Positions 6,684 through 22,622 of a stretch of DNA of 34,734 nt are shown here, in pieces. The notes under the pieces were generated by a model. That model did no database searches. It was not told the origin of the DNA and saw nothing but the letters and a program-made list of their open reading frames with translations. The stretch lies in IMG/VR virus record IMGVR_UViG_2531839454_000020; one strand, given 5' to 3'. Each line of letters begins with the position of its first letter. Position 1 is the first letter of the stretch. The translations under genes were made by a program, and so were the position numbers. Origin of the DNA: a virus (Duplodnaviria > Heunggongvirae > Uroviricota > Caudoviricetes).

Positions 6684-8591
6684 ATGAAACTAATTTCTAA
6701 TAAGGCCAAATTAAAAAAGATTCTCAGAAATGCAGCCAAATATATTACGCCACCGCCTAAACTCCTTCCATCGGAATGGTGCGAAGCTAATATGGTGCTG
6801 GTAGATGGTCCTCAAGCTGGGGATAAAGTTAAATTGCTGTCATTCCAGAAAGGTATGATTGATGCTCCTTTCCTTGAGAACAAGAAAAAGTATGTTCTGA
6901 TGACCAGTGCGCAGATCGGAAAGACTACCATCCTGAACGGCATCCTGTTTAACCAGATGGCTAACGATCCATGCAATATGATTATCGGACAATCAACCGC
7001 TAAAGAAATGTCTCAATATCTCGCTGGTAAGATCCGACCGTCTATCGAAGCATGTGATGCATTAAAAGACGTGGTTACAGACAAGAATGATCGCAATGCG
7101 GTTAACAACAATAACCAACTCCAGCTAAAAACGAATCACTTCCTGTACATGGTATCGCTTACCAGTCCATCAACCCTGCGCGGTAAGACTGCAAAGGTCG
7201 GACTACTAGACGAAATCGATGCTGCTACAGCCTCAGAAGAAGGTGATCCGGTGGCACTGGCTGCTAACCGTTTAACTACCTTTGGCGATGAAGGCCGATT
7301 AGTCGTATCCAGTACCCCGACCAGTAAGCTCGGAAGCATTAACCAGCAATGGTTATCAAGCGATATGCGTATGTTTTTTGTTCCGTGTCCTCATTGCGGG
7401 GAACACCAGGTGATCGAGTGGGAAAACGTTCAATTTGAATGGCGTAACATCGATGGTAAGAACTTACCCGATCCTGATACCGCTCGTTATATTTGCCCCC
7501 ACTGTAAGAACGCATGGACAGAAGGGGAACGAATCAGGGCAGTAGCGCAAGGCGAGTGGAGAGCAACCCGTGAAAGTGAAGTAGCAGGATTCTGGATTAG
7601 CCGTCTGTATTCACCTTTCAGCACGATCCGCGCTTGTGTGGTTGATTTTAGTCATGCGTGGCAATCCTTTGATTTACAATCATTTTATAACACCGTGTTA
7701 GGCAAGGTATACGATGATCAGGACACGGCAGTAGAAGCAAATGAACTGGAACAACTCAAAACAGATGTTTCTATCGAGAATATCCCTGATGACGTGATTT
7801 TCTTGTGCTCAGGAATTGACCAGCAATTGGATCGCGCAGAATCTACCATCTTAGGTGTAGCGAAAGATAAGGTTTACATTCTGGATCACCGTAGCTTTTA
7901 CGATCATAACTGTGAACGATACGAATCACCTGTATGGGATCGTCTGGTTAACTTCAAGAAAACCAAATTCTATAACGTTAATGGTGAACGTGTGCCAATG
8001 CTCGCCAGCTTCCTCGATACATCAAACGGTCGATTCACTCAAGCCGGATACCGTATTTGTGGTAAGTGGAAGAACCTACACGCTATTAAAGGTAGTTCAT
8101 CTGGTAATGCTCCAGTGATTCCGGTTAAACCTACCCGCACAGGTGGTCATGAATTGCTTATGCTGGGCGTTAACGTTGGTAAATCCGCTGTTCGTGAAAT
8201 GCTGGTTAGAAACCTGAAAGATAATCCTCATATTGGCTTAGAAATATCAGAAACCGTTCCTGATGATTATCTCGATCAGCTTTTGAGTGAATCCATCAAG
8301 CGTACTACTACTGGTGTTCGTTGGGTGAAAAATCCAGGTAGTACCCGAAACGAGGCTCTCGACTGTCTGGTTTATAGCTATGCTGCTTCTCGCTACGTCC
8401 TTTCAAAAATGTCATGGGATAAACTCATTGCAATGAAAGACAGCTTAAACAGCGTTAAAGAAGAACCCGTAAAAGCTCCTGAATCGCAATCTGACGAGCA
8501 AATCGAAGAAACTAAGCCAATCACACGACCGCAACGTCAAAACATCGCCAGACGCCCAAATAGAGGCCGTAGCTGGGTAACATCGTTCTAA
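6684..8591 (+). CDS. terminase large subunit (GpA-like), 635 aa
   Basis: First gene of the + structural block; Walker-A-like TSAQIGKTT; size and position typical of a large terminase; SD GAGGGT. Confidence 0.8.
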
Positions 8592-9171: not shown

Positions 9172-10683
9172 ATGTTTAATCTTTTTCGACGCAAAAAGGC
9201 GGTAGAAACTCCAGTTAAAACTAATCACCGCCAGCAACAACCAAAAATTTTCATCGATAAGCAAGTAGAAAAATTCCAGAAATCTCTGGCGACTCGTAGT
9301 TTAGGACTGGTTGGTGATCGTATTGATGGATCACTTCAACAAGACACCATTACAGGAACCTTCAATAAGGCTCTCAAATCGAATGGTAAGCGCCTTTATG
9401 ATCAGGGTCGTACTCTGGCCTTAAACACTTCCGTAGGCAGTCGCTACACGCAATACATCACCGATATGGTGGTAGGTACTGGCCTAGATCCGAAGCCGTC
9501 AGTTGTTAAACCAAATGGAAAACTTGATAGCGCACTGAATAAGCAGATCGAGAATGCTTTCTGGAAGTGGGCGCAGAATGCTAAACGCTTCTCTCGCAAT
9601 GGTCGTTTTAACTTCCGTGAATTGCTGGTAATGGCTGAACGTGAGCGCGTTATGGGTGGTGAGTGTTTCATCGTTTTAACTAAAGAAAACAATGAGTTAA
9701 ATGTTTCTATCCTGTCTGCTGATAAATGCGACTGGTCGCTAAACCGTGAAATAAGCAAAGAGCGTGCGATATATCAAGGTGTGGAGTATGACGTAGAGAC
9801 GATGAAGCCCGTAGCATACTGGTTTCGTAAAATCAACCTACTGACTCAGACCTACACTGGTGATAACTATCGCGTCGATGCTTCGCAAGTATGCCATTAT
9901 TATCAACCACTTGCGGCTGAATCCCTGCGTGGTGTGACTGACTTCCTGCCAGTGATTAAGGATATCGCACATCAAGACGCATTCCGCGAAACTGCGATCG
10001 TCCAGAAACGTATTGCGGCTAGTTCTATGGGCTTTATCGAACGTCCGAAAGATTCTGGTGACGATTTTGATACTGGTGAAGAGGATGAACAATATCAAGC
10101 GCCGGAAGTAGTACAGGATTTTGCACCTGGTACTATTCAGGAATTACCGGAAGGGGCAACGATCAAGAGCATCCAGGCGACGCAAAGCGGTGATGATTTC
10201 AAATCCTTTAACGATGCGATGTATGGTAGCGTCGCGATGGGCTTAGGCGTGTTTAAACAGGGCTTGACTGGTGACACTAGCCAAATAAATTACAGCGCCA
10301 GTAGATTCGGTGATTTAATGCAACGACACCGCGTTAAAGCACTGCAAAACAAATTGATTGAAACAGTGGTATTGCCAATTTTCGAAGCATATCTACGCCA
10401 TTATTCCGCGCGTGGTATTGTTCCGATTCGTATTACTGCAATTCCGCATATTATCGATAACACTACTATTATTCGTCCTCGTTTTGAATCCGTCGATCCA
10501 TTTAAAGACGTAAGCGCCGAGATTGCTTTAATTGATAACGGACTTAAATCACGTACTGCCGTTATTCTTGAACGTGGTGATGATCCTGAAAAAGTATTCT
10601 CAGAGATTCAAGCCGAAAAGAGCGCACTAAATATTATCGTTAATGGCGAGGGTGAAGAAAAAAATTCCCCAGCCGATCCCTAA
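9172..10683 (+). CDS. portal protein (503 aa)
   Basis: Size and position directly upstream of the protease/capsid gene; SD AAGGGGGA. Confidence 0.75.
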   Translation: MFNLFRRKKAVETPVKTNHRQQQPKIFIDKQVEKFQKSLATRSLGLVGDRIDGSLQQDTITGTFNKALKSNGKRLYDQGRTLALNTSVGSRYTQYITDMVVGTGLDPKPSVVKPNGKLDSALNKQIENAFWKWAQNAKRFSRNGRFNFRELLVMAERERVMGGECFIVLTKENNELNVSILSADKCDWSLNREISKERAIYQGVEYDVETMKPVAYWFRKINLLTQTYTGDNYRVDASQVCHYYQPLAAESLRGVTDFLPVIKDIAHQDAFRETAIVQKRIAASSMGFIERPKDSGDDFDTGEEDEQYQAPEVVQDFAPGTIQELPEGATIKSIQATQSGDDFKSFNDAMYGSVAMGLGVFKQGLTGDTSQINYSASRFGDLMQRHRVKALQNKLIETVVLPIFEAYLRHYSARGIVPIRITAIPHIIDNTTIIRPRFESVDPFKDVSAEIALIDNGLKSRTAVILERGDDPEKVFSEIQAEKSALNIIVNGEGEEKNSPADP

Positions 10684-10728: not shown

Positions 10729-12729
10729 ATGCTTAAATTTCGCCGCGATCTTAACGGTTACGGTGGAGTTATTAACGAAGGGCATAACGATCAATACGAA
10801 TTTGAAATTGCTTTCTCCAGTGAACAGCCGTATCAGCGCCAATTCTGGGATGAGCAAAATCAAGAGATGGGGGTACTAGATGAAATTCTGGTACATACAC
10901 CGGAAGCGGTTGATCTGTCTCGTCTGAATAATAACGCTCCATTGCTGTTCAATCATAATTTCGATAATCATTTAGGTGTAGTCTGCGACGCTCGAATCGA
11001 TGCGGATAACGTAGGTCGTGCTCTGGTTAAATTCTCTAAGCATGGCACTTTGGCTAATGATATTCGCAATAAAGTCATTGAAGGTACGATGGAAAAAATT
11101 TCTGTCGGCTATGACATTAAAGAATATCACATCGATTACGCCAAAGGGCAATTGATTGTTACTAAGTGGGCGCCCTATGAACTCTCATTTGTCACCGTTC
11201 CTGCTGACGATACGGTCGGTTTAAATCGCTCTCTAAATACTATCACAGTTAATTTGGAGGCTAAACGCGATATGACTAAAGAACAAATTGAAGAAATCAA
11301 AGAAGAACAAGAATCCGCTCAGGTTGAAGAAACTCCGGTAGAAGAAATTAAAGAATCGGAAGTTGAAGAAACTCAAGAGCGCCAAGTTGAAGAGAATAAA
11401 GAAGATGAAAATCTCGAAGACGGAAAAGACGCTGAACATCCTGAAAGTGTTGATGATGATAGTTCAACTGTTCGGGAAGAAGAAATAAAAGAAGAACGTG
11501 AAGCTGCTCCGGTTGAAGAAGAAAAAATCGAAGAAGTGGCTGAACGTTCCGAAGAAGACGAATTAGAAATTCGCGAAATTGCACGCGAACTAAATATTGA
11601 TGACGAAGAATTGAAACGCGCATTGGCAATTAAAGACATGACGCCGGAAGCATTCCGCACTAAGGCACTAAATAATCTCGTCAATGCTCAACGTAATAAC
11701 GAACAAATTAAGGACTCTAAAATGGAAAAAACTTTTGACCTGAACAACGTAATTCGCTCTCTGGTAGATGGTGCTGCTCTGGGTGCTAACGAAGCTGAAT
11801 ATTCCTCTATGGCTGCTGGTGCTGCGATGCAGCGTGGTCGTGCTGCTCGTGGGGGCTCTGTATTCGTTCCGGCTGCTGCTCTGCGTGCTGCTGCTGATGG
11901 TAACACCAAAACTACTCTGACCGCTGTAACTGACGAAAAACTGATGACTGAATCCTACATCGAAATGCTGATGCCGGAATCTGTTCTGGGTCGTCTGGGT
12001 GTGACTGTTTACAGTGGCTTGAACTCCCCGACCGCTATTCCAAAAATGACCGCTTCCAGCGTTGACGCTTTCGGCTTCGTTGATGAAAACGGTGCTGCAC
12101 CGGAAAGCAAAGCTGAATTTGCGAACGTGAAACTGTCTCCGAAAACTTTTGCTGGTGGCAACCCGATCAGCCGTCAGTCGCTGAAAACCGTTCCGGGCAT
12201 CGCTACCCTGATCACTGATCACATTAACAAAGCTGTTCGTATCAAACTGGAACAACTGATTCTGTCTGATAAAGAAAATGCTCGTGGTCCGGCTGGTCTG
12301 GTTAAGCAACTGGTAGACGCTAGCCGCGTTACCAAGAAAGCTGCTTTCTCTTATAAAGACTTCCTGAAAGAAATTGCAGCACTGACCGACGCTGGCGTTC
12401 CTGCTCAGGCGATCAAGTTTGCAATGAGCGGTGCAACTGCTGCTGAACTGGAATCTACCCTGAAAGATAACGGCGTTTCCGGTTATATCATCGAAAACGG
12501 CAAACTGGCTGGTTACGAAGTAGTTACTTCTGGCGTTATCCCGGCAGACCACATCGTTCTGGGTGACTTCTCCGGTATTACTATCGGTGAGTGGGGAGGT
12601 CTGGAACTCGACATGGATCTAACTACATATAGGGATCGTGGTGCGGTAGTGCCTCGTATCTTTGTAGATTTGGACTACGTTGTAGCACAGCCGGAAGCCC
12701 TGAAAGTTCTTCACATCTCCGCTGAATGA
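10729..12729 (+). CDS. prohead protease - scaffold-like acidic linker - major capsid protein fusion (666 aa)
   Basis: N-terminal ~190 aa protease-like region, then an E/K-rich segment (EQIEEIKEEQESAQVEETPVEEIKESEVEE...), then a ~350-aa HK97-like capsid region. Antisense minus-strand ORFs here are artefacts. Confidence 0.7.
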   Translation: MLKFRRDLNGYGGVINEGHNDQYEFEIAFSSEQPYQRQFWDEQNQEMGVLDEILVHTPEAVDLSRLNNNAPLLFNHNFDNHLGVVCDARIDADNVGRALVKFSKHGTLANDIRNKVIEGTMEKISVGYDIKEYHIDYAKGQLIVTKWAPYELSFVTVPADDTVGLNRSLNTITVNLEAKRDMTKEQIEEIKEEQESAQVEETPVEEIKESEVEETQERQVEENKEDENLEDGKDAEHPESVDDDSSTVREEEIKEEREAAPVEEEKIEEVAERSEEDELEIREIARELNIDDEELKRALAIKDMTPEAFRTKALNNLVNAQRNNEQIKDSKMEKTFDLNNVIRSLVDGAALGANEAEYSSMAAGAAMQRGRAARGGSVFVPAAALRAAADGNTKTTLTAVTDEKLMTESYIEMLMPESVLGRLGVTVYSGLNSPTAIPKMTASSVDAFGFVDENGAAPESKAEFANVKLSPKTFAGGNPISRQSLKTVPGIATLITDHINKAVRIKLEQLILSDKENARGPAGLVKQLVDASRVTKKAAFSYKDFLKEIAALTDAGVPAQAIKFAMSGATAAELESTLKDNGVSGYIIENGKLAGYEVVTSGVIPADHIVLGDFSGITIGEWGGLELDMDLTTYRDRGAVVPRIFVDLDYVVAQPEALKVLHISAE

Positions 12730-12866
12730 ACTCCTGTAGAACCTTCTGAACCTTCCCCCGATTTGGGGGAAGAAAATCTGATTCCATCTCAGGAAGAAGA
12801 AGTTCAAGAGGTTACGGCGAAAGCCACAGTTAAAAAAGAACGTAAGACTAAAGCAAAATAATAATT

Positions 12867-12895
12867 AGCCCTGCCTTAATGGTGGGGCTTTTTTG
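12867..12895 (+). terminator. intrinsic terminator downstream of the capsid gene
   Basis: agccctgcc/ggtggggct stem followed by tttttt; lies after the 44-codon in-frame extension, not directly after the capsid stop. Confidence 0.6.
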
Positions 12896-13631: not shown

Positions 13632-14465
13632 ATGAATATTACACAAGATAACTTAGACATTTTCACGGGGTCGCATGTTGAAGTCTCCGTGTCTACTATG
13701 GTGGATAACCAGCCGGACTTTTTCGATCCTGCATTTAGTCCTATCGAGAACATCGCAGCATTTCCGACGATAACCGAATCCACAGAGATCCAGACGTTAG
13801 AAGAATATGACCATGATGTTACTGGTAAGTTGGCTGGCTATCGTAAACTTGAATCAACAACACTCACAGTAAACCGTGTTCTGGATGATGAACATCAAGC
13901 AATGTTGATGAAAGCGGTAGAGGATAAAACCCCTTTACGCTTCCGTATGTTCTATGTTGTGAACTCTGGCTATAGTGCTGCTAACACAGGATACTACGTC
14001 ATTTTTGATGCATACGTCACATCACACAAAACCCGTGGTAGCGATAACAAAGTTACTACCATCGAATTTAAATTAGATCCTGATGGTGGGATTCTCGACC
14101 GTGGTATTGCCACCGAAGGCCGGATCTTACGTCAAGGTGATTTTGGTTTGGGTGCTGGTGTAAATCCATTCACGGGTCCGATTGATAGCGAAGCATTAGC
14201 CGGAAACCGTTTCGTAACCTATCAGGGATCGAGCGCATCTAACCCATTTAGTGCTGATACTTCACTAATTCACGTTCAACCTAATGAAGATGGAGGATGG
14301 CAATTAACTTGCACCGCTTCCGGCGCACCACGTTTACGAGTTCGCACAGTCCAGAAAGACGGTAATTCTGGATGGGTGAAAGTGTATTCCACAGAAGAAA
14401 AACCGACACCAGCCGAGATTGAAGCCGTTTCTATCCATGACCGGATCGATTTCGGGGAATACTGA
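13632..14465 (+). CDS. structural protein (277 aa) with C-terminal Ig-like region; tail tube- or decoration-like
   Basis: SD AAGGGGT; C-terminal LTCTASGAPRLRVRTVQKDGNSGWVKVYS suggests a Big_2/Ig-like fold as seen on some major tail or decoration proteins. Confidence 0.4.
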   Translation: MNITQDNLDIFTGSHVEVSVSTMVDNQPDFFDPAFSPIENIAAFPTITESTEIQTLEEYDHDVTGKLAGYRKLESTTLTVNRVLDDEHQAMLMKAVEDKTPLRFRMFYVVNSGYSAANTGYYVIFDAYVTSHKTRGSDNKVTTIEFKLDPDGGILDRGIATEGRILRQGDFGLGAGVNPFTGPIDSEALAGNRFVTYQGSSASNPFSADTSLIHVQPNEDGGWQLTCTASGAPRLRVRTVQKDGNSGWVKVYSTEEKPTPAEIEAVSIHDRIDFGEY

Positions 14466-14538: not shown

Positions 14539-17500
14539 ATGCAATCAATCCAATTTAAACGAACTAATGTTTCTGGCAAAAAACCAACGCCGGAACAATT
14601 ACAGGTCGGTGAGGTAGCAATCAACCTTAAAGACCATGTTATTTTTACCAAAGACCGAGATCATGAAGTAGTTCAAATCTCTGTTTCTCCTGAAACTCAC
14701 GCGGCACTAGAATCTAAAGTTGATGCTAATAAAAAAGAACTGGATAGCACAATTGTAGTAAACGACCGCAATATTCACGCTAAAGTAGATGAAATTAAAC
14801 AAACTACTGATGCAACAATCGCAGCAAATCACGCAGAAATTAACAATAAAGTTGATGTAATTAAACGCGAAACCGACGCGACAATCGAGGCCAATAAAAA
14901 TAAAGCTGCTTCCGATCTTGCTGGTGTTAAAGCTGAATTGTCGGATACCATCAACGCTAATAAAAATGCGGCTGCTGTAGCAACTCAGGAACTGGACACC
15001 CGCATCAATAAAAAAGTTGATGATATTAAATCCCGTACCGATGCAACCATCGTAAGCAATCACAAAGCAATCAATGACAAAGTTGATTTGATTAAGGCAG
15101 AAACTGACCGCACTATCGCAGCAAATCACGCCTATGCGGAAAATCAGTTAACTGACACCTACAATAACCTTACTGGTGTGATTGCAGCCAATAAGCAAGA
15201 GGCAGCGGATAACGTCGCAGCATTAACCCGTGATGTTGAAGCCAAAAATACAGCAATTCATAGCAAAGTTGACAATAACAAGTCTTACACTGATTCTGAA
15301 TTGGCACGCTTAGAAAGCCGTATTGATGCAGCCGATGGATCAAGTGATGGTAAGTACATCAAAAAGCACGTAAACACTTGCACTGATGGCTATTTGCTGT
15401 CTAAGACCGCAAACCCTTTTGATGATCCGAGTGCTCTTAATCTTGATTACTTTGGTGCATTTCGCATGAATGACCTGGCGGGTCATATTGCAATGATCTT
15501 GCATGTTCCGCACCCATCCGGCGTTAATCATGCTCGTGGTTTTGAGTTCACTTATGGGTCTAATCCACATGCTACTGTAAGAACATACGGCTATGATGAA
15601 TTGGGACATTTGGCATATTCTCACCGCATGTATCATGAAGGTGATAAACCTACTCCGGCTGAAATTGGCGCATATTCGAAAGCAGAAATTGACCGACTGT
15701 TCCAGAAGACGCTTAATTTTGGTATCGAGGGTGGTTGGTTTAAACTAGGCACTTTGACAATGCCACAACAACACGGTCGCACGGCTAAGATCCGTTTGGT
15801 AGGTGGTAACGGTTATAACGTAGGACATAATGGAAAAGCCAATATTATCGAATTGGTGATTCGATGCGGCAACAATAGCCCGAAAGGTGTTGTATTCAAT
15901 GCGTATTATACTATTTGGCATTATGAACAACATTTTTGCGCTATTCCAACCGATGGCGACAATTACGATCTTTACGCTTACTACGGTGCACATACAGGAT
16001 TTGTTTTAGCAGAATATCAAGTTTCTTCCGGTGGTGTTTCTTTAAACCTGTTGGATACTCCTGAATATCTGGGTGGTGAAAAACCTGTTGCAGATGAAAT
16101 TTTTGATGCTCTTAACATTTCATCGTTCAATAACTTTAGCAACCGTGGGACGTTAAATTTTGCTGGCAATCATCAAGGCCAATATGATATTGAGCATTTA
16201 AACGAACAACCGACAAATGCTAAAAAGATGTTGCGTCGCTTCCGTAGTTGTGCACCAGCTACAATCTGGCATGAGACAGTTGATGATAACGCATATCGTC
16301 TTGCTACTGGATACGAAGATACAAATCAGGAATTATTGCTGACAGCAACATCCGGGTTACATGTCAAGAAATTAACATTGGATGGCGGTGTTACTGGAAA
16401 TTCTGGTATTGATATTCGTCGAGGACCAAACGAATCAAGTCATTTTAATTTCATGGATTATCGCACTGGACAAGATGTTCGTAATGGTTGGTTTGGTTTT
16501 GGTGATGGAACAACCAAAGATTTTATTTGGTGGAACGATAACGGTCAAAACTCTATAAACCTGATTGAAGATGGTGAATTGCATATTACTGGCGGTAAAG
16601 GCCAGAAAATTGTAATGAATAGCGAAGTTGCATTATCTGAAAATGCTCGTTTGGCTGTCAAAGGTGGTAACTATGGCTTAATTTTTAGAAATGATGGCGT
16701 TGGCTTCCATATTCTTACCACAGATCTCGGTGATTCATTTGGACCGTGGAATACTCGTAGACCATTCAGCTATAATTTTGCTGACGGTGGATTATATTTA
16801 GGTGGCACTGAAACTGCTCGTTGTTTGCATCTTGGAATTGATGGTAGTACCCGTCTTGAAGACAACCTTTTCTTTAAAGCTGGTTCTCGTCAATCTATGG
16901 ACTATATGGAACTCGTCCATTGGGGGGCAAGCAATACAGGTCGAAATAACGTTTTAAGTCTTCGTGACTCAAAAGGATTTTTCGCAGAATTTGAACGATT
17001 GGGTGATAATACCATTAAAAACACCTTCTTCGGGAAACTTAAAGTTAATCGTGGTTCTGACGCAATCGTCATGAATGCCGAAACGGGTGATTCGTCTATA
17101 TATTTGCTGGGTACTTGTGCTGATAATAACAACTGGTATATCGGTAAAGGTGGTGCTGATAATGGATTAGCGTTCTATAGCTATGCTACTAATGCTGCTA
17201 TCAATATTACAAACGCGGGTGATATCGCGCTAAGTCCAAAAGGTGTCGAAATGACTCATGTCAATAACGTTCGATTCTATGTTCATGGTGAACGTTGGAC
17301 TGCTAGCCAATCTGGAGGTTGGGGCGATCAATGGGGATTAGAAGCGCCGATATTTGTCGATCATGGTTATGTAGGACCAGATAGCTATTATCCAATTATT
17401 AAAGGAAGAAGTTTAATCACCAATCAAGGGTATACAACTGCCGTCGATTTTGGTATGCGTCGTGTTCCTCAAAATTGGGGGCAAGCAATTATTCGCGTTG

Positions 17501-17949
17501 GATCTGCGGAGGCATCGCCAGCGGCTGGTCATCCTCAAGCGGTGTTTGAATTTCATCATGATGGTACTTTCTATTCTCCTGGTAATGGTAACTTTAACGA
17601 TGTTTATATTCGTTCCGATGGTCGTCTGAAAATTAATGTTGAAGATTACGAAGAAAATGCGGTGGATAAGGTAAATAAACTCAAAGTTAAAACCTACGAT
17701 AAAGTTAAATCTCTTAATGACCGAGAAGTTATAGGTCATGAGATTGGTATTATCGCACAGGATTTACAAGAGGTATTACCGGAAGCTGTTAAAACCGCAA
17801 AAATTGGTGGTCTTGATAACCCAGAAGAAATTTTAACAATTTCAAACTCCGCAGTGAACGCGCTTTTAATTAAAGCGGTCCAAGAAATGAGCGAAGAAAA
17901 TAAACTTCTTCGTGAACGTCTTGCTGCAATTGAAGCTAAATTAGGGTAA
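14539..17949 (+). CDS. L-shaped-type tail fibre with C-terminal intramolecular chaperone (peptidase S74-like), 1136 aa
   Basis: N-terminal FKRTNVSGKKPTPEQLQVGEVAINLKD; four KVD-x-IK-xx-TD-x-TI-xx-NH repeats; C-terminal ~110 aa beginning S|DGRLKINVEDYE and ending in a coiled coil, as in auto-cleaving chaperone domains of T5-type fibres and endosialidases (recalled). Confidence 0.75.
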   Translation: MQSIQFKRTNVSGKKPTPEQLQVGEVAINLKDHVIFTKDRDHEVVQISVSPETHAALESKVDANKKELDSTIVVNDRNIHAKVDEIKQTTDATIAANHAEINNKVDVIKRETDATIEANKNKAASDLAGVKAELSDTINANKNAAAVATQELDTRINKKVDDIKSRTDATIVSNHKAINDKVDLIKAETDRTIAANHAYAENQLTDTYNNLTGVIAANKQEAADNVAALTRDVEAKNTAIHSKVDNNKSYTDSELARLESRIDAADGSSDGKYIKKHVNTCTDGYLLSKTANPFDDPSALNLDYFGAFRMNDLAGHIAMILHVPHPSGVNHARGFEFTYGSNPHATVRTYGYDELGHLAYSHRMYHEGDKPTPAEIGAYSKAEIDRLFQKTLNFGIEGGWFKLGTLTMPQQHGRTAKIRLVGGNGYNVGHNGKANIIELVIRCGNNSPKGVVFNAYYTIWHYEQHFCAIPTDGDNYDLYAYYGAHTGFVLAEYQVSSGGVSLNLLDTPEYLGGEKPVADEIFDALNISSFNNFSNRGTLNFAGNHQGQYDIEHLNEQPTNAKKMLRRFRSCAPATIWHETVDDNAYRLATGYEDTNQELLLTATSGLHVKKLTLDGGVTGNSGIDIRRGPNESSHFNFMDYRTGQDVRNGWFGFGDGTTKDFIWWNDNGQNSINLIEDGELHITGGKGQKIVMNSEVALSENARLAVKGGNYGLIFRNDGVGFHILTTDLGDSFGPWNTRRPFSYNFADGGLYLGGTETARCLHLGIDGSTRLEDNLFFKAGSRQSMDYMELVHWGASNTGRNNVLSLRDSKGFFAEFERLGDNTIKNTFFGKLKVNRGSDAIVMNAETGDSSIYLLGTCADNNNWYIGKGGADNGLAFYSYATNAAINITNAGDIALSPKGVEMTHVNNVRFYVHGERWTASQSGGWGDQWGLEAPIFVDHGYVGPDSYYPIIKGRSLITNQGYTTAVDFGMRRVPQNWGQAIIRVGSAEASPAAGHPQAVFEFHHDGTFYSPGNGNFNDVYIRSDGRLKINVEDYEENAVDKVNKLKVKTYDKVKSLNDREVIGHEIGIIAQDLQEVLPEAVKTAKIGGLDNPEEILTISNSAVNALLIKAVQEMSEENKLLRERLAAIEAKLG
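17617..17946 (+). other. predicted auto-cleaved intramolecular chaperone domain of the fibre
   Basis: Begins at the Asp of ...YIRS|DGRLK...; 110 aa to the stop. Confidence 0.55.
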
Positions 17950-19501: not shown

Positions 19502-19810
19502 ATGAATATTAATGAAATGCTGAAAGCTCTTTCTCCGAAACGCGAATCTCTGACCATCGGTGGATTCACTTTCTATGCTCGCCCTATGTCAGTAAAAGAA
19601 TTTAACGAACATGTTTTCAATACCGATAAAGATGACCGTGATGAACGTTCTATTCTTCGTTGTATTGAAGATGAAGACGGTAAACCAGTATTTGAATCTA
19701 TGGAACAAGTTAAGGCACTGTATACTAACGTCCGCAGTGAATTAATCGGTTTGGTTGCTCAAGCGTCATTGATGCAAGATCCGGCAGTAATTGAAAACGA
19801 GGTAAAGTAA
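19502..19810 (+). CDS. tail assembly chaperone (lambda G-like), 102 aa
   Basis: Position before the tape measure; SD AAGAGGAAA. Confidence 0.55.
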   Translation: MNINEMLKALSPKRESLTIGGFTFYARPMSVKEFNEHVFNTDKDDRDERSILRCIEDEDGKPVFESMEQVKALYTNVRSELIGLVAQASLMQDPAVIENEVK

Positions 19811-19839
19811 ACCCGCTTCTGAATTTCTATTTCCGGCAA

Positions 19840-20181
19840 ATGATGCGATCGGGGCTTAGTAAAGATGAAATGGATAATATGCCAATCACTCTATTTTGGA
19901 AATTATACATTTTCGACACCTACTTAGAACCACAAAGCCCCGCGTTTCATGATATGCAGAATGCGATGTTGCAATATTCCATGTATATGACGTCGCAAGG
20001 AATGACACGCGAAACTGCAAAGAAACTCAAGCCTAGCCAATTCCAATTAATTAGAGAAGAAAAACTCTTTAAAACTAAAGAAGAACTGGAAGAAATTGCA
20101 CGCAAGAAAGAAGAAGAACGTAAAGCGGCAATGCTGAACATGTTTGATCCATCTTTGCTTGAGAAACTCAGAAGCGGTTAA
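19840..20181 (+). CDS. tail assembly chaperone T-like ORF, probably expressed as a G-T fusion by -1 frameshift
   Basis: ORF is in the -1 frame relative to G and opens at 19795, before the G stop (19808); no SD before its first ATG; A-AAG shifty site directly before the G stop. Confidence 0.45.
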   Translation: MMRSGLSKDEMDNMPITLFWKLYIFDTYLEPQSPAFHDMQNAMLQYSMYMTSQGMTRETAKKLKPSQFQLIREEKLFKTKEELEEIARKKEEERKAAMLNMFDPSLLEKLRSG

Positions 20182-20192
20182 AGGGGTAATTT

Positions 20193-22622
20193 ATGACAAA
20201 ACATATAGTAACAATAGAAGGGGATAATAAAGGGCTAAAGAGAAGTACCAATGAAGCCGCCGACCTTCTCGATAGTTTGTCTGAAAAGGCAAGTAATATT
20301 GATTTTGGTGGTGGCTTATCTGGTCTGACTGGATCTCTTCGTGGGATCGCTGGCTCTGCTGGTTTGGCTGCTGGTGGTATTGGCTTAGTTGCGACCGCAG
20401 TGGTTGCAGCCGCTAAAGCTGGTGCGGAATACGTTAAACAGTATTCAGAAGTATCTAAGGCGACCGGACTCTCGATTGAATCCCTTCAAAGACTAGAAAA
20501 GGAATTTTCTGGCACTGGCTTAACAGTTGAAAAATTCGGTGATATCAACAAAGACACCTTAGATAAAATGGGTGATGCATGGGCTAACGGTGGCGGTATT
20601 GCCGATGACTTAGAATCGGTTGGCCTTAAGTTAGAAAACTATGCTCACTTCATGACTGATCCGCAAGGTGGTATGAAAGCGGCGATCCAAGTGTTCTATG
20701 ACATGAAGAAAGCCGGAAAATCAATGGCTGAAATCAAGTTCATGATGGAATCTTTAGCCAGTGATTCAAGCCATATGACCAGCCAGCTTGAGAAATATAA
20801 TACTGCTCAAGAGGCGATGATCGCTATTCAGAATCAATCTGTTAACGTCACCGAAGAAAACGCTAAAAAATATGATAAATTTTCTCAAAATATCAATAAG
20901 CTGGAAAATAACCTGAAAGGTGTCGGTATGACCATTTCTGGTCCGCTGGTTGATAGTTTAAACTGGTTATTTGACTGGTTTAATATTGATTGGGAAAAGA
21001 GTTCTCTATTCAGGGCATTAGATCGACTGAATAAAGAAGGCAAGACCGCAACTGGCGGTATTCTTAACGCCAACCATAAAGACGCTCAAAAAATTATTGA
21101 CAAGTACAATAAAGAAAAGCGTTGGAATAATCTGGCAGATTGGGAAAAGGCCGCGATCCGTGGTGCTGGTGTCGATCCTCGTACTGCTGGCTTTGATGTT
21201 GAAGGATTTAAGAAACGTTTTGGTGATTCTTATAAGAAAAATGGCTCTCTGATTGTTGTCGATAACGGGGAACATCTGACACGCAAGGCAGATCCTAACA
21301 CTGATTTGACTATACCAAATAAACCAGTAAGACCAGAATCATTGGGTAAATCTGGCAACGAGAAGAAAGCCGAAGAAGAAGCACGCAAGAAAGCGGAAGA
21401 GGCAGCTAAAAAGGCTAAGGAAGCCGCAGAAAAAGCACAGAAAGAACGCGAGGACGCAATCAAGCGACTGAATGCACTTGATGTTAAATTGCAAGGGCAG
21501 GTTGCCGCGTCTATTGCTTCTCAAAACAAGCAGTTAGAAGCCAGTTTGAAAGATTTGGATACTGCTTTAGCTCTGGGCTTAATCTCTCAGGAAGACGCAG
21601 CCGCGAAACGCCAGGCGCTAATCGATCAGAATACTGAAAACGTATACAAAATGGTCTTAGGTGCTGATCCGGTTGATGCTCTGAATGCTTTAACACAATT
21701 GCAACAAATCAGGGACAACGAGTTAGAAAGCCATAAACGGTTACTTGATGGTAAGGCTATCTCCTACGAAGAATATATGCGTCGTGTGAATGATACCGAA
21801 CAAAGTTATTCACAGATTGAAGATTCTTTGCATGGAATGGATGGTTTTAAAACCAATCAATTGACCAATAGCTTAGACTATCAGGACTCAAATAATCCGT
21901 TTGCTAAATTTAATGCAATCGATAAAGAGAAATCGGATGCTGAACAAGATTATAAGACCGATAAACTCAAGATTGATGGGATCACCGATCCGGCTAAACG
22001 GATGGAAGAATTAGAAAAACTCAATGAAAACCATCAAAAACGAATGGCTGCAATTGAGAAGAAATATGCTGATGCTCGCCAGTCAATAGCCGATGATATG
22101 TACGGCGGTTTTGCTGCTGCAATGACTCTCTTCGGGCAGGAAAACACTAAAGCTATGCAGATGGCTTTCAATGCTCATAAAGCATTCTCTATCGGACAAG
22201 CGACGGTGAACATGTGGACGGCTGCTACCGATGCATGGAACGATCCGACCAACGTCACCACAGGTCAAAAAATCGCGGCTGCTGCATTGGCTGTTTCTCA
22301 GAACATGGGGAACATCGCAAACATCAAGTCTACTAACGTTAGCGGTATGGCTCATGATGGTATTGATAACATCCCTCGTGAGGGTACATGGTTGCTTGAT
22401 AAGGGTGAACGAGTAGTTGATCAGCGTACTAACGGTGATTTGAAAGACTTCCTTGCTGCTCAAAAATCAGGTGGGGGTAACTCTCAGCCGATTGAAGTTA
22501 ATGCGCCTTTGAACATTAACGGCAACGTTAATAGCTCAGACAAGATGGTCATGGATGCTATCAAACGTCACGCTAAGTTTGTTGCTCAGGCGATAGAAGA
22601 CGTTCAGCGTCGTAAGATGTAA
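20193..22622 (+). CDS. tape measure protein (809 aa)
   Basis: Long protein after the chaperone pair; Gly/Ala-rich N-terminal segment and K/E/A coiled-coil stretches (EEEARKKAEEAAKKAKEAAEKAQKE). Confidence 0.75.
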   Translation: MTKHIVTIEGDNKGLKRSTNEAADLLDSLSEKASNIDFGGGLSGLTGSLRGIAGSAGLAAGGIGLVATAVVAAAKAGAEYVKQYSEVSKATGLSIESLQRLEKEFSGTGLTVEKFGDINKDTLDKMGDAWANGGGIADDLESVGLKLENYAHFMTDPQGGMKAAIQVFYDMKKAGKSMAEIKFMMESLASDSSHMTSQLEKYNTAQEAMIAIQNQSVNVTEENAKKYDKFSQNINKLENNLKGVGMTISGPLVDSLNWLFDWFNIDWEKSSLFRALDRLNKEGKTATGGILNANHKDAQKIIDKYNKEKRWNNLADWEKAAIRGAGVDPRTAGFDVEGFKKRFGDSYKKNGSLIVVDNGEHLTRKADPNTDLTIPNKPVRPESLGKSGNEKKAEEEARKKAEEAAKKAKEAAEKAQKEREDAIKRLNALDVKLQGQVAASIASQNKQLEASLKDLDTALALGLISQEDAAAKRQALIDQNTENVYKMVLGADPVDALNALTQLQQIRDNELESHKRLLDGKAISYEEYMRRVNDTEQSYSQIEDSLHGMDGFKTNQLTNSLDYQDSNNPFAKFNAIDKEKSDAEQDYKTDKLKIDGITDPAKRMEELEKLNENHQKRMAAIEKKYADARQSIADDMYGGFAAAMTLFGQENTKAMQMAFNAHKAFSIGQATVNMWTAATDAWNDPTNVTTGQKIAAAALAVSQNMGNIANIKSTNVSGMAHDGIDNIPREGTWLLDKGERVVDQRTNGDLKDFLAAQKSGGGNSQPIEVNAPLNINGNVNSSDKMVMDAIKRHAKFVAQAIEDVQRRKM

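Follow-up and report, generated by a model that had tools for sequence, protein, structure and literature searches.

Very few examples of selected stop-codon read-through are known in bacteria, and the textbook case is the coat gene of phage Qbeta, where termination of the abundant coat protein at UGA is leaky and a few percent of the chains acquire a C-terminal extension (A1) and are built into the shell, the Qbeta record annotating about 5% read-through at the coat stop. In tailed double-stranded DNA (dsDNA) phages two capsid species are obtained from one gene through frameshifting at its 3' end, which adds a C-terminal extension to an otherwise shared capsid fold at a fixed low ratio: the shift is -1 in T3, T7 (10A/10B), Lactobacillus phage A2 and Listeria phages A118 and A500, and +1 in PSA, and a review of capsid recoding noted an apparent indifference to the mode employed (PMC5009743). 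Here we consider the major capsid gene of a lambda-like Escherichia coli prophage, carried by IMG/VR virus record IMGVR_UViG_2531839454_000020 (Duplodnaviria; Heunggongvirae; Uroviricota; Caudoviricetes), a stretch of 34,734 nucleotides (nt) analyzed as a whole and hereafter called the window, in which the TGA that ends the capsid gene is followed by an open in-frame extension. It is likely, in our judgment, that this UGA undergoes selected read-through by Trp-tRNA, giving rise to a minor, C-terminally extended capsid protein.

The locus shares with Qbeta the E. coli host and the stop codon together with its 3' codon, the UGA-ACU of the capsid gene being identical to the annotated leaky coat stop of Qbeta (UAC UGA ACU). 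Qbeta is, nonetheless, a 4.2-kb single-stranded RNA levivirus with an unrelated coat fold and a folded extension of about 196 amino acids (aa) annotated as a minor virion protein, whereas the window holds a dsDNA tailed prophage, a capsid protein of the HK97 fold and a predicted low-complexity tail of 27-45 aa. The comparison with the frameshifting phages is closer as regards virion type and proposed product, but unlike that of T7 10B the extension follows a stop codon without any change of frame, and where many of the known frameshift extensions are Ig-like domains, this one is a short charged tail. In a literature search of incomplete coverage, read-through was nowhere reported for the capsid gene of a tailed phage; the window would join such a gene with a Qbeta-type leaky stop, and has three sequence features of programmed read-through, namely a conserved open frame behind the stop, a conserved stop of leaky type and the lack of an independent start.

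The capsid stop codon and the frame behind it

The capsid gene ends at TGA 12727..12729, as the sequence-only reading had placed it, and the site reads GAA TGA ACT (12724-12732). That reading had counted 44 in-frame sense codons behind the stop; the frame is indeed open (12730-12858), while the number of sense codons is 43, and 44 is reached only when the TGA itself is included. The extension stop at TAA 12859..12861 was correctly located, and is directly followed by a second TAA (12862-12864); the terminator-like hairpin lies after the second stop, with its stem beginning 2 nt after the extension region. Neither an ATG nor a Shine-Dalgarno sequence (SD) occurs in the extension frame, again as described, the sole start-like codon being a TTG at 12763 that no SD precedes. 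The extension had no Pfam match and no tblastn match in the phage collection, and in the RefSeq annotation the stretch after the capsid gene is left blank. It is not codon-optimized (GC content at third codon positions 0.26), which fits a low ribosome traffic across it.

Stop codon usage sets the capsid gene apart within the window. TAA ends 32 of the 34 genes and TGA only two, the capsid gene and the gene at 13632-14465, whose own TGA is followed in frame by a TAA three codons later. Highly codon-optimized E. coli genes are expected to use strong stops, and the most codon-optimized gene of the window ends with TGA. A single G-to-A change would yield TAA at this position, and none was seen in the relatives, so that a stop of leaky type in a weak context is conserved despite the TAA preference of the genome. 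UGAA shows relatively weak binding by release factor 2 (RF2; PMC5373646), and in K-12 reporters UGA read-through, in which Trp-tRNA(Trp) competes with RF2, amounts to about 2% at 37°C and 4% at 25°C (PMC10570021).

Conservation of the extension among relatives

Conservation of the frame in relatives, which had been named beforehand as a check of the read-through proposal, was assessed on 57 copies of the capsid clade (32 from IMG/VR, 11 from metagenomes, 13 from complete E. coli genomes, and the window itself), the relatives being E. coli/Shigella prophage copies; the element occurs in 54 of 5426 complete E. coli genomes (about 1%). The check was passed: frame 0 is open to the tandem stop and the capsid stop is TGA followed by A in 57/57 copies, the next codon being ACT in 38 and AAT in 19. 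The last capsid sense codon is always acidic (GAA 42, GAG 9, GAC 6), and no variant with a sense codon at the position of the capsid stop was seen. The extension ends at TAATAA in 56 copies and at TGATAA in one.

This frame is retained across considerable sequence variation. The 57 copies hold 32 distinct nucleotide sequences and 28 distinct peptides of 27, 28, 42, 43, 44 or 45 codons, and at least five independent indel or replacement events, every one a multiple of three, lie behind these six length classes. Stop sites across the relatives number four in frame +1 and eight in frame -1, mostly polymorphic, and none in frame 0; with respect to the window, relatives have gained stops at four sites in frame -1 and at none in frame 0. 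Each extension combines, in mosaic fashion, one of several starts (TP, TN, TS, NN) with varying middles and ends (KKERKTKAK, KKQRKTKE, KKVGRPPKAK, KKAGRPPKAKE, KRGRKPKE). Long and short forms have V-T-A-K-A-T-x-K-K in common, while in the short forms the spacer is replaced by NNEELPEEIPV and is 16 codons shorter. Besides the composition, conservation concerns the frame, the distribution of charge (a spacer that is acidic and rich in proline, then the basic VTAKATxKK... tip) and the place where the extension ends, and does not cover most of the exact sequence, as would be expected of a disordered tail. Among the best 120 of 180 homologue clusters (E<=1e-5) none reaches into the tail, with query coverage <=88%.

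Two copies (L087 and L088, from E. coli PE15 and 39EVA) have a different capsid C-end, ...SALTVVQKKVD, with TGA and extension kept: the 3' end of the capsid gene is of another lineage (...DLDWAVMDHSALTVVQKKVD), and the TGA, extension and terminator behind it are those of the other copies, which suggests that recombination took place at the stop codon or close to it. In L088 the last residues of the tail are ...AKRGRKPKE, and TGATAA follows. A frameshifted extension in L081 was considered as a counter-example and dropped, as this assembly has several homopolymer errors; both L081 and L082 (GCA_019583375.1, GCA_019583425.1) show homopolymer-length differences around the locus and a fragmented capsid gene, judged to be sequencing errors.

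A sister clade with candidate frameshifts

A sister clade, whose capsid domain is 40-43% identical and whose gene order is the same, ends its zero frame with TAA; it was found in 7 of 5426 complete E. coli genomes, besides IMG/VR and metagenome contigs. In several members a slippery site precedes the TAA by 2-4 codons: A AAA AAG is in phase in L048, L075 and L074, GAA AAG is found in L084 and in phage DCP80, A AAA AAA in L038, and A-runs in L035 and L036. The -1 frame then extends over 17-34 codons, closes shortly ahead of the terminator, and encodes six distinct basic tails conserved at the amino-acid level (four are given in Table 1). Just 3' of the slip site stands a hairpin of member-specific sequence, with z-scores of -3.0 and -4.0 for two members. 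The sister clade thus appears to frameshift T7-style, at A AAA AAG or A_AAG. The three in-phase members, in which a stable hairpin begins within a few nt, also resemble the dnaX cassette (A AAA AAG plus a 3' stem-loop), with the difference that the shift shortens the protein in dnaX and would lengthen it in the sister clade; the cassette is absent from the window. Unannotated candidate -1 frameshifts were noted in L048 (2478-2560), L074, L075, L084, L036/L085, L035/L038/L086 and L083 (DCP80). The last record (PQ671644.1, Escherichia phage DCP80) is 141 kb long and classed as Straboviridae/Tevenvirinae, but carries a lambda-like protease-capsid module with its genes labeled 'hypothetical', and may be a chimeric assembly or a misclassification.

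A slippery site ahead of the stop, together with a shifted frame that encodes the tail, is present in the sister clade and absent in the window clade. Frameshifting into the extension was also considered for the window itself and rejected: the +1 and -1 frames run into stops no more than 4 and 7 codons from the TGA, which puts the extension out of reach of frameshifting. In other members and in a Salmonella relative, short K/A-rich tails are fused directly to the capsid protein (...GTPAEAKAAKQ, ...KAPAGRSK). A protein search with the frameshift product of the sister clade did not return the sister clade, and found the Salmonella relative with its fused tail. A spacer followed by a basic tip is a pattern common to the tails of the family, which looks as though it adds a basic C-terminal tail in three ways, either a short one fused to all subunits or a longer one given to a minority by -1 frameshifting or by a leaky UGA. 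More generally, we lean, if only slightly, to the view that in this E. coli prophage capsid family the dose of a basic C-terminal surface tail is determined by which of three interchangeable decoding modes is in use, namely fusion, -1 frameshifting and programmed UGA read-through.

Weight of the evidence and alternative explanations

The frame of the window taken by itself is open this far in about 6-7% of shuffles, and is therefore not significant; significance comes from the relatives. The weight of the case lies on the length changes, which are all multiples of three ((1/3)^5 = 0.004), and with the substitution test described below a combined conditional probability of about 6e-4 (0.15 x 0.004) is reached. 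The sequence-only reading had left the choice between low-level UGA read-through and coincidence. With the conservation test passed and this probability low, coincidence is unlikely, and read-through is supported by the conservation of the frame, by the length changes, by the stops in the other frames and by the lack of a conserved start.

Several observations weigh against read-through. Given the open window, and using ungapped columns, the 27 long variants were all open in 15% of column shuffles, and substitutions alone are consequently not decisive (P=0.15). The full column shuffle gave P = 1.5e-4, a figure inflated because shuffling scatters the gap columns, about 6e-4 being the fairer one. 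The ratio of nonsynonymous to synonymous polymorphism (pN/pS) is 0.72 in the extension vs. 0.26 in the capsid domain, and variable extension sites are distributed 11/17/17 over the three codon positions, with no third-position concentration, which indicates that the amino-acid sequence of the extension is weakly constrained. The invariance of TGA within the clade has no significance of its own. No stimulatory element shared between long and short variants was found, and homology of the window tail to the sister-clade tails is not demonstrable, owing to low sequence complexity. Moreover, natural E. coli have an efficient RF2 allele, with which read-through of a native UGA (nudL) was undetectable, and rapid termination at UGAA was inferred by the same authors from low ribosome occupancy of the stop codon (PMC5373646). 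The real frequency of read-through in wild hosts may for this reason be well below 2%.

Some of these figures are what would be expected if the extension were a neutral relic or a coincidence, i.e., if an ancestral gene had run to the TAATAA, a nonsense mutation had created the TGA, and the untranslated 3' region had not yet decayed. The chance openness of the window, the substitution-only test and the pN/pS of the extension all agree with such a history, and the directly fused tails of relatives make a longer ancestral gene plausible. A relic would, however, hardly account for at least five length changes all in multiples of three among 32 distinct sequences, for four new stop sites in frame -1 and none in frame 0, for a TGA retained where 32 of 34 window genes use TAA, for the same arrangement behind a divergent capsid C-end, or for the equivalent tail that the sister clade keeps in another frame. 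We consider this explanation unlikely.

Selection could alternatively act on the RNA, with 3' hairpins stabilizing the abundant capsid mRNA or tuning the terminator and the open frame as a by-product. The long variants contain a hairpin (12752-12772) 22-25 nt from the UGA, with z = -1.6 in an 86-nt context; in the surrounding 35 nt, third codon positions included, a single site varies among 22 long variants, and in L088 the hairpin is altered at one loop base only. The short variants lack it and carry instead another strong hairpin, AAUUGCCGGAA-GAAA-UUCCGGUAGUU, 10 nt after the UGA (z = -2.3), and the extension region ends 2 nt before the terminator stem. These features suit a function in RNA, but the two hairpins have unrelated positions relative to the stop and unlike sequences, covariation is seen in neither, their outer stems are not conserved, and an Rfam search gave chance matches only. 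An RNA element would in addition leave unexplained the indels in multiples of three, the single stop-free frame and the conserved K-rich coding end, and this makes it a distinctly improbable account of the locus.

Translation of a separate small protein, from an internal start at TTG 12763 (32 aa) or by reinitiation after the TGA, appears very improbable. The open reading frame (ORF) list does include TTG 12763..12861, and the TTG is kept in most long variants; yet the sequence upstream of it reads TGAACCTTCCCCCGAT, with no SD, the codon is TCG in L088, the TTG of the short forms is TTA in L010, where the one start-like codon left is a GTG 7 codons before the end, and codons upstream of the TTG are also held in frame. 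The ATG overlapping the stop (gaATGa) is in another frame, which closes after 7 codons. An independent initiation for the downstream frame is thus not found (no ATG, no SD, TTG not conserved), as would be expected under read-through.

Selenocysteine machinery is present in E. coli. Dedicated decoding of the UGA, whether by selenocysteine, a phage suppressor tRNA, a reassigned code or a stop-hop of the peptidyl-tRNA, could invoke that machinery, the hairpin downstream of the UGA and the GAA codons found 3-4 codons past the stop, but can practically be dismissed, as no selenocysteine insertion sequence (SECIS) or other Rfam match was found up to E=10, the hairpins differ between variants and lie 22-25 nt (long) or 10 nt (short) from the UGA, the window holds no tRNA gene, the host code is standard with ORFs intact under table 11 and a normal stop at the other TGA gene, and for a hop the GAC-ended variants have no matching landing codon. 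A hop from GAA to a downstream GAA was also rejected because its distance is not conserved. Two further candidates were discarded: an antisense ORF (12619..12807) is broken in L010 and L020, and a 'safe landing' for ribosomes that read through by accident should place a back-up stop early in the frame. If such read-through were simply harmful, either TAA or an early back-up stop would be expected, and the opposite is observed.

Proposed mechanism, dose and location

Under the read-through proposal, most ribosomes would stop at 12727-12729 and release the normal capsid protein. In a small fraction, we infer, the UGA would be decoded by Trp-tRNA(Trp) in competition with RF2, and translation would continue for 43 codons and halt at TAA TAA, with a predicted junction peptide VLHISAE-W-TPVEPSEPSPDLGEENLIPSQEEEVQEVTAK. 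The product would be a minor capsid species bearing a disordered, acidic, proline-rich spacer that ends in a lysine/arginine-rich tip. In a T=7 shell of about 415 subunits, a read-through of 0.2-2% would give about 1-8 tailed subunits per head.

Display on T7 10B and on encapsulins points to an exterior C-terminus. The same orientation is found in P22, whose HK97-fold coat has its C-terminus outward near the five-/six-fold centers, where bulky C-terminal fusions clash (PMC9962691). On these grounds a flexible tail would be expected on the exterior: with the HK97-fold C-terminus on the outer face near the capsomer center, it would probably be displayed outside. Crowding at the capsomer center offers a rationale for longer tails being sub-stoichiometric, and the stop codon would keep the tail dose low where six tails would crowd one another. 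Function is the weakest step of the proposal: the likeliest roles, both of them guesses, would be weak electrostatic adhesion, for instance to the polyanions of cells or mucus, and an accessory contact of the particle. The KKVGRPPKAK variant of the tip resembles the core of an AT-hook; other variants do not.

The capsid gene and other features of the window

The region belongs to the head module of the lambda-like prophage (Table 1). In the 666-aa ORF an acidic linker connects a prohead protease (Peptidase_S78) to the major capsid protein (Phage_capsid, HK97-fold) behind it. PF04586 matches residues 40-162 and PF05065 residues 407-662, the latter with 93.4 bits vs. a curated cut-off of 24.2, which, with terminase, portal and protease nearby, identifies an HK97-fold capsid gene. 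The exact 666-aa protein is also called on NCBI record AQCY01000078.1, and the source organisms given for homologues are E. coli, Shigella and E. albertii. The nearest solved structure to the capsid domain is 8gta, the capsid protein of roseophage R4C (E=1e-24), whose capsid is T=7 with 415 copies (PMC10276861). An AlphaFold model of the capsid domain from a shallow alignment had a predicted local distance difference test (pLDDT) score of 35 and was not used, blastn and tblastn searches of the capsid region against the phage collection gave distant capsid matches only, and scans of the genome-contig collection returned nothing.

Codon usage switches sharply at 11722. Leucine is encoded by CTG in 25 of 30 codons within the capsid domain vs. 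5 of 23 upstream, and alanine by GCT in 35 of 47 vs. 13 of 22; in codon optimization the capsid domain is far ahead of every other stretch. Within the 666-aa ORF the capsid domain begins at an internal ATG (11722) that has an AAGGA 8 nt before it (region 11700-11730), and some gene callers report a 335-aa capsid protein (P0069). The capsid domain is probably also translated separately from this internal ATG, at a much higher rate than the fusion.

Table 1. Coordinates of the head genes, of the capsid stop and extension in the window, and peptides of the sister-clade -1 frame.
Feature	Position	Strand	Basis
gpA-type large terminase	6684-8591		
Lambda-family portal	9172-10683		
Protease-linker-capsid ORF, 666 aa, TGA-ended	10729..12729	+	ORF list, Pfam
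Capsid (HK97-fold) domain, codon-optimized, own internal ATG	11722..12726	+	codon counts, structure match
Proposed recoding site GAA TGA ACT (acidic last codon, UGA, A at +4)	12724..12732	+	sequence, relatives
In-frame extension, 43 codons, TPVEPSEPSPDLGEENLIPSQEEEVQEVTAKATVKKERKTKAK	12730..12858	+	sequence, ORF list
Acidic, proline-rich spacer TPVEPSEPSPDLGEENLIPSQEEEVQE, of variable length in relatives	12730..12810	+	alignment
Hairpin CTTCCCCC-GATTT-GGGGGAAG within the extension	12752..12772	+	fold
Basic tip VTAKATVKKERKTKAK, best conserved part of the extension	12811..12858	+	alignment
Tandem strong stops TAA TAA, end of the extension	12859..12864	+	sequence
Intrinsic terminator-like hairpin (12867-12889) plus T-run	12867..12895	+	kept in all relatives
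Sister-clade -1 peptide DGSLTDTGAQAAPVRKPRALKVTK			
Sister-clade -1 peptide DGSVIDSGLKKTRVNKLRSRKVTK			
Sister-clade -1 peptide DGSLIDTGVQKTPIKKARAQKSVK			
Sister-clade -1 peptide NGSLINTGEQASPAKVKKPRALKVK			

Other parts of the window were also noted. The region 19502-20181, just ahead of the tape-measure gene (20193-22622, 809 aa), comprises two small ORFs; GTA AAG TAA closes the first, whose -1 frame runs into the second, and A_AAG adjoins the stop, the usual G/GT-type tail-chaperone frameshift arrangement. The TGA-ended gene at 13632-14465 (277 aa, no Pfam match) terminates ...EEKPTPAEIEAVSIHDRIDFGEY, which resembles KPTPAEIGAYSKAEIDRLF within the following 1136-aa tail-fiber gene (14539-17949). 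The position of this fiber gene directly after the head-completion genes is an unusual order.

Implications

If the proposal holds, the capsid gene of this prophage would be, as far as the literature was searched, the first structural gene of a tailed dsDNA phage with programmed stop-codon read-through, and a tailed-phage capsid gene with a UGA-ACU signal would extend the catalogue of recoding. For annotation, the practical point is that an element present in about 1% of complete E. coli genomes has its extension left blank at present. The sister clade, with its candidate -1 frameshifting, offers a natural comparison between two mechanisms for one product, and the family would hold a natural swap of read-through and frameshifting in a genetically tractable host.

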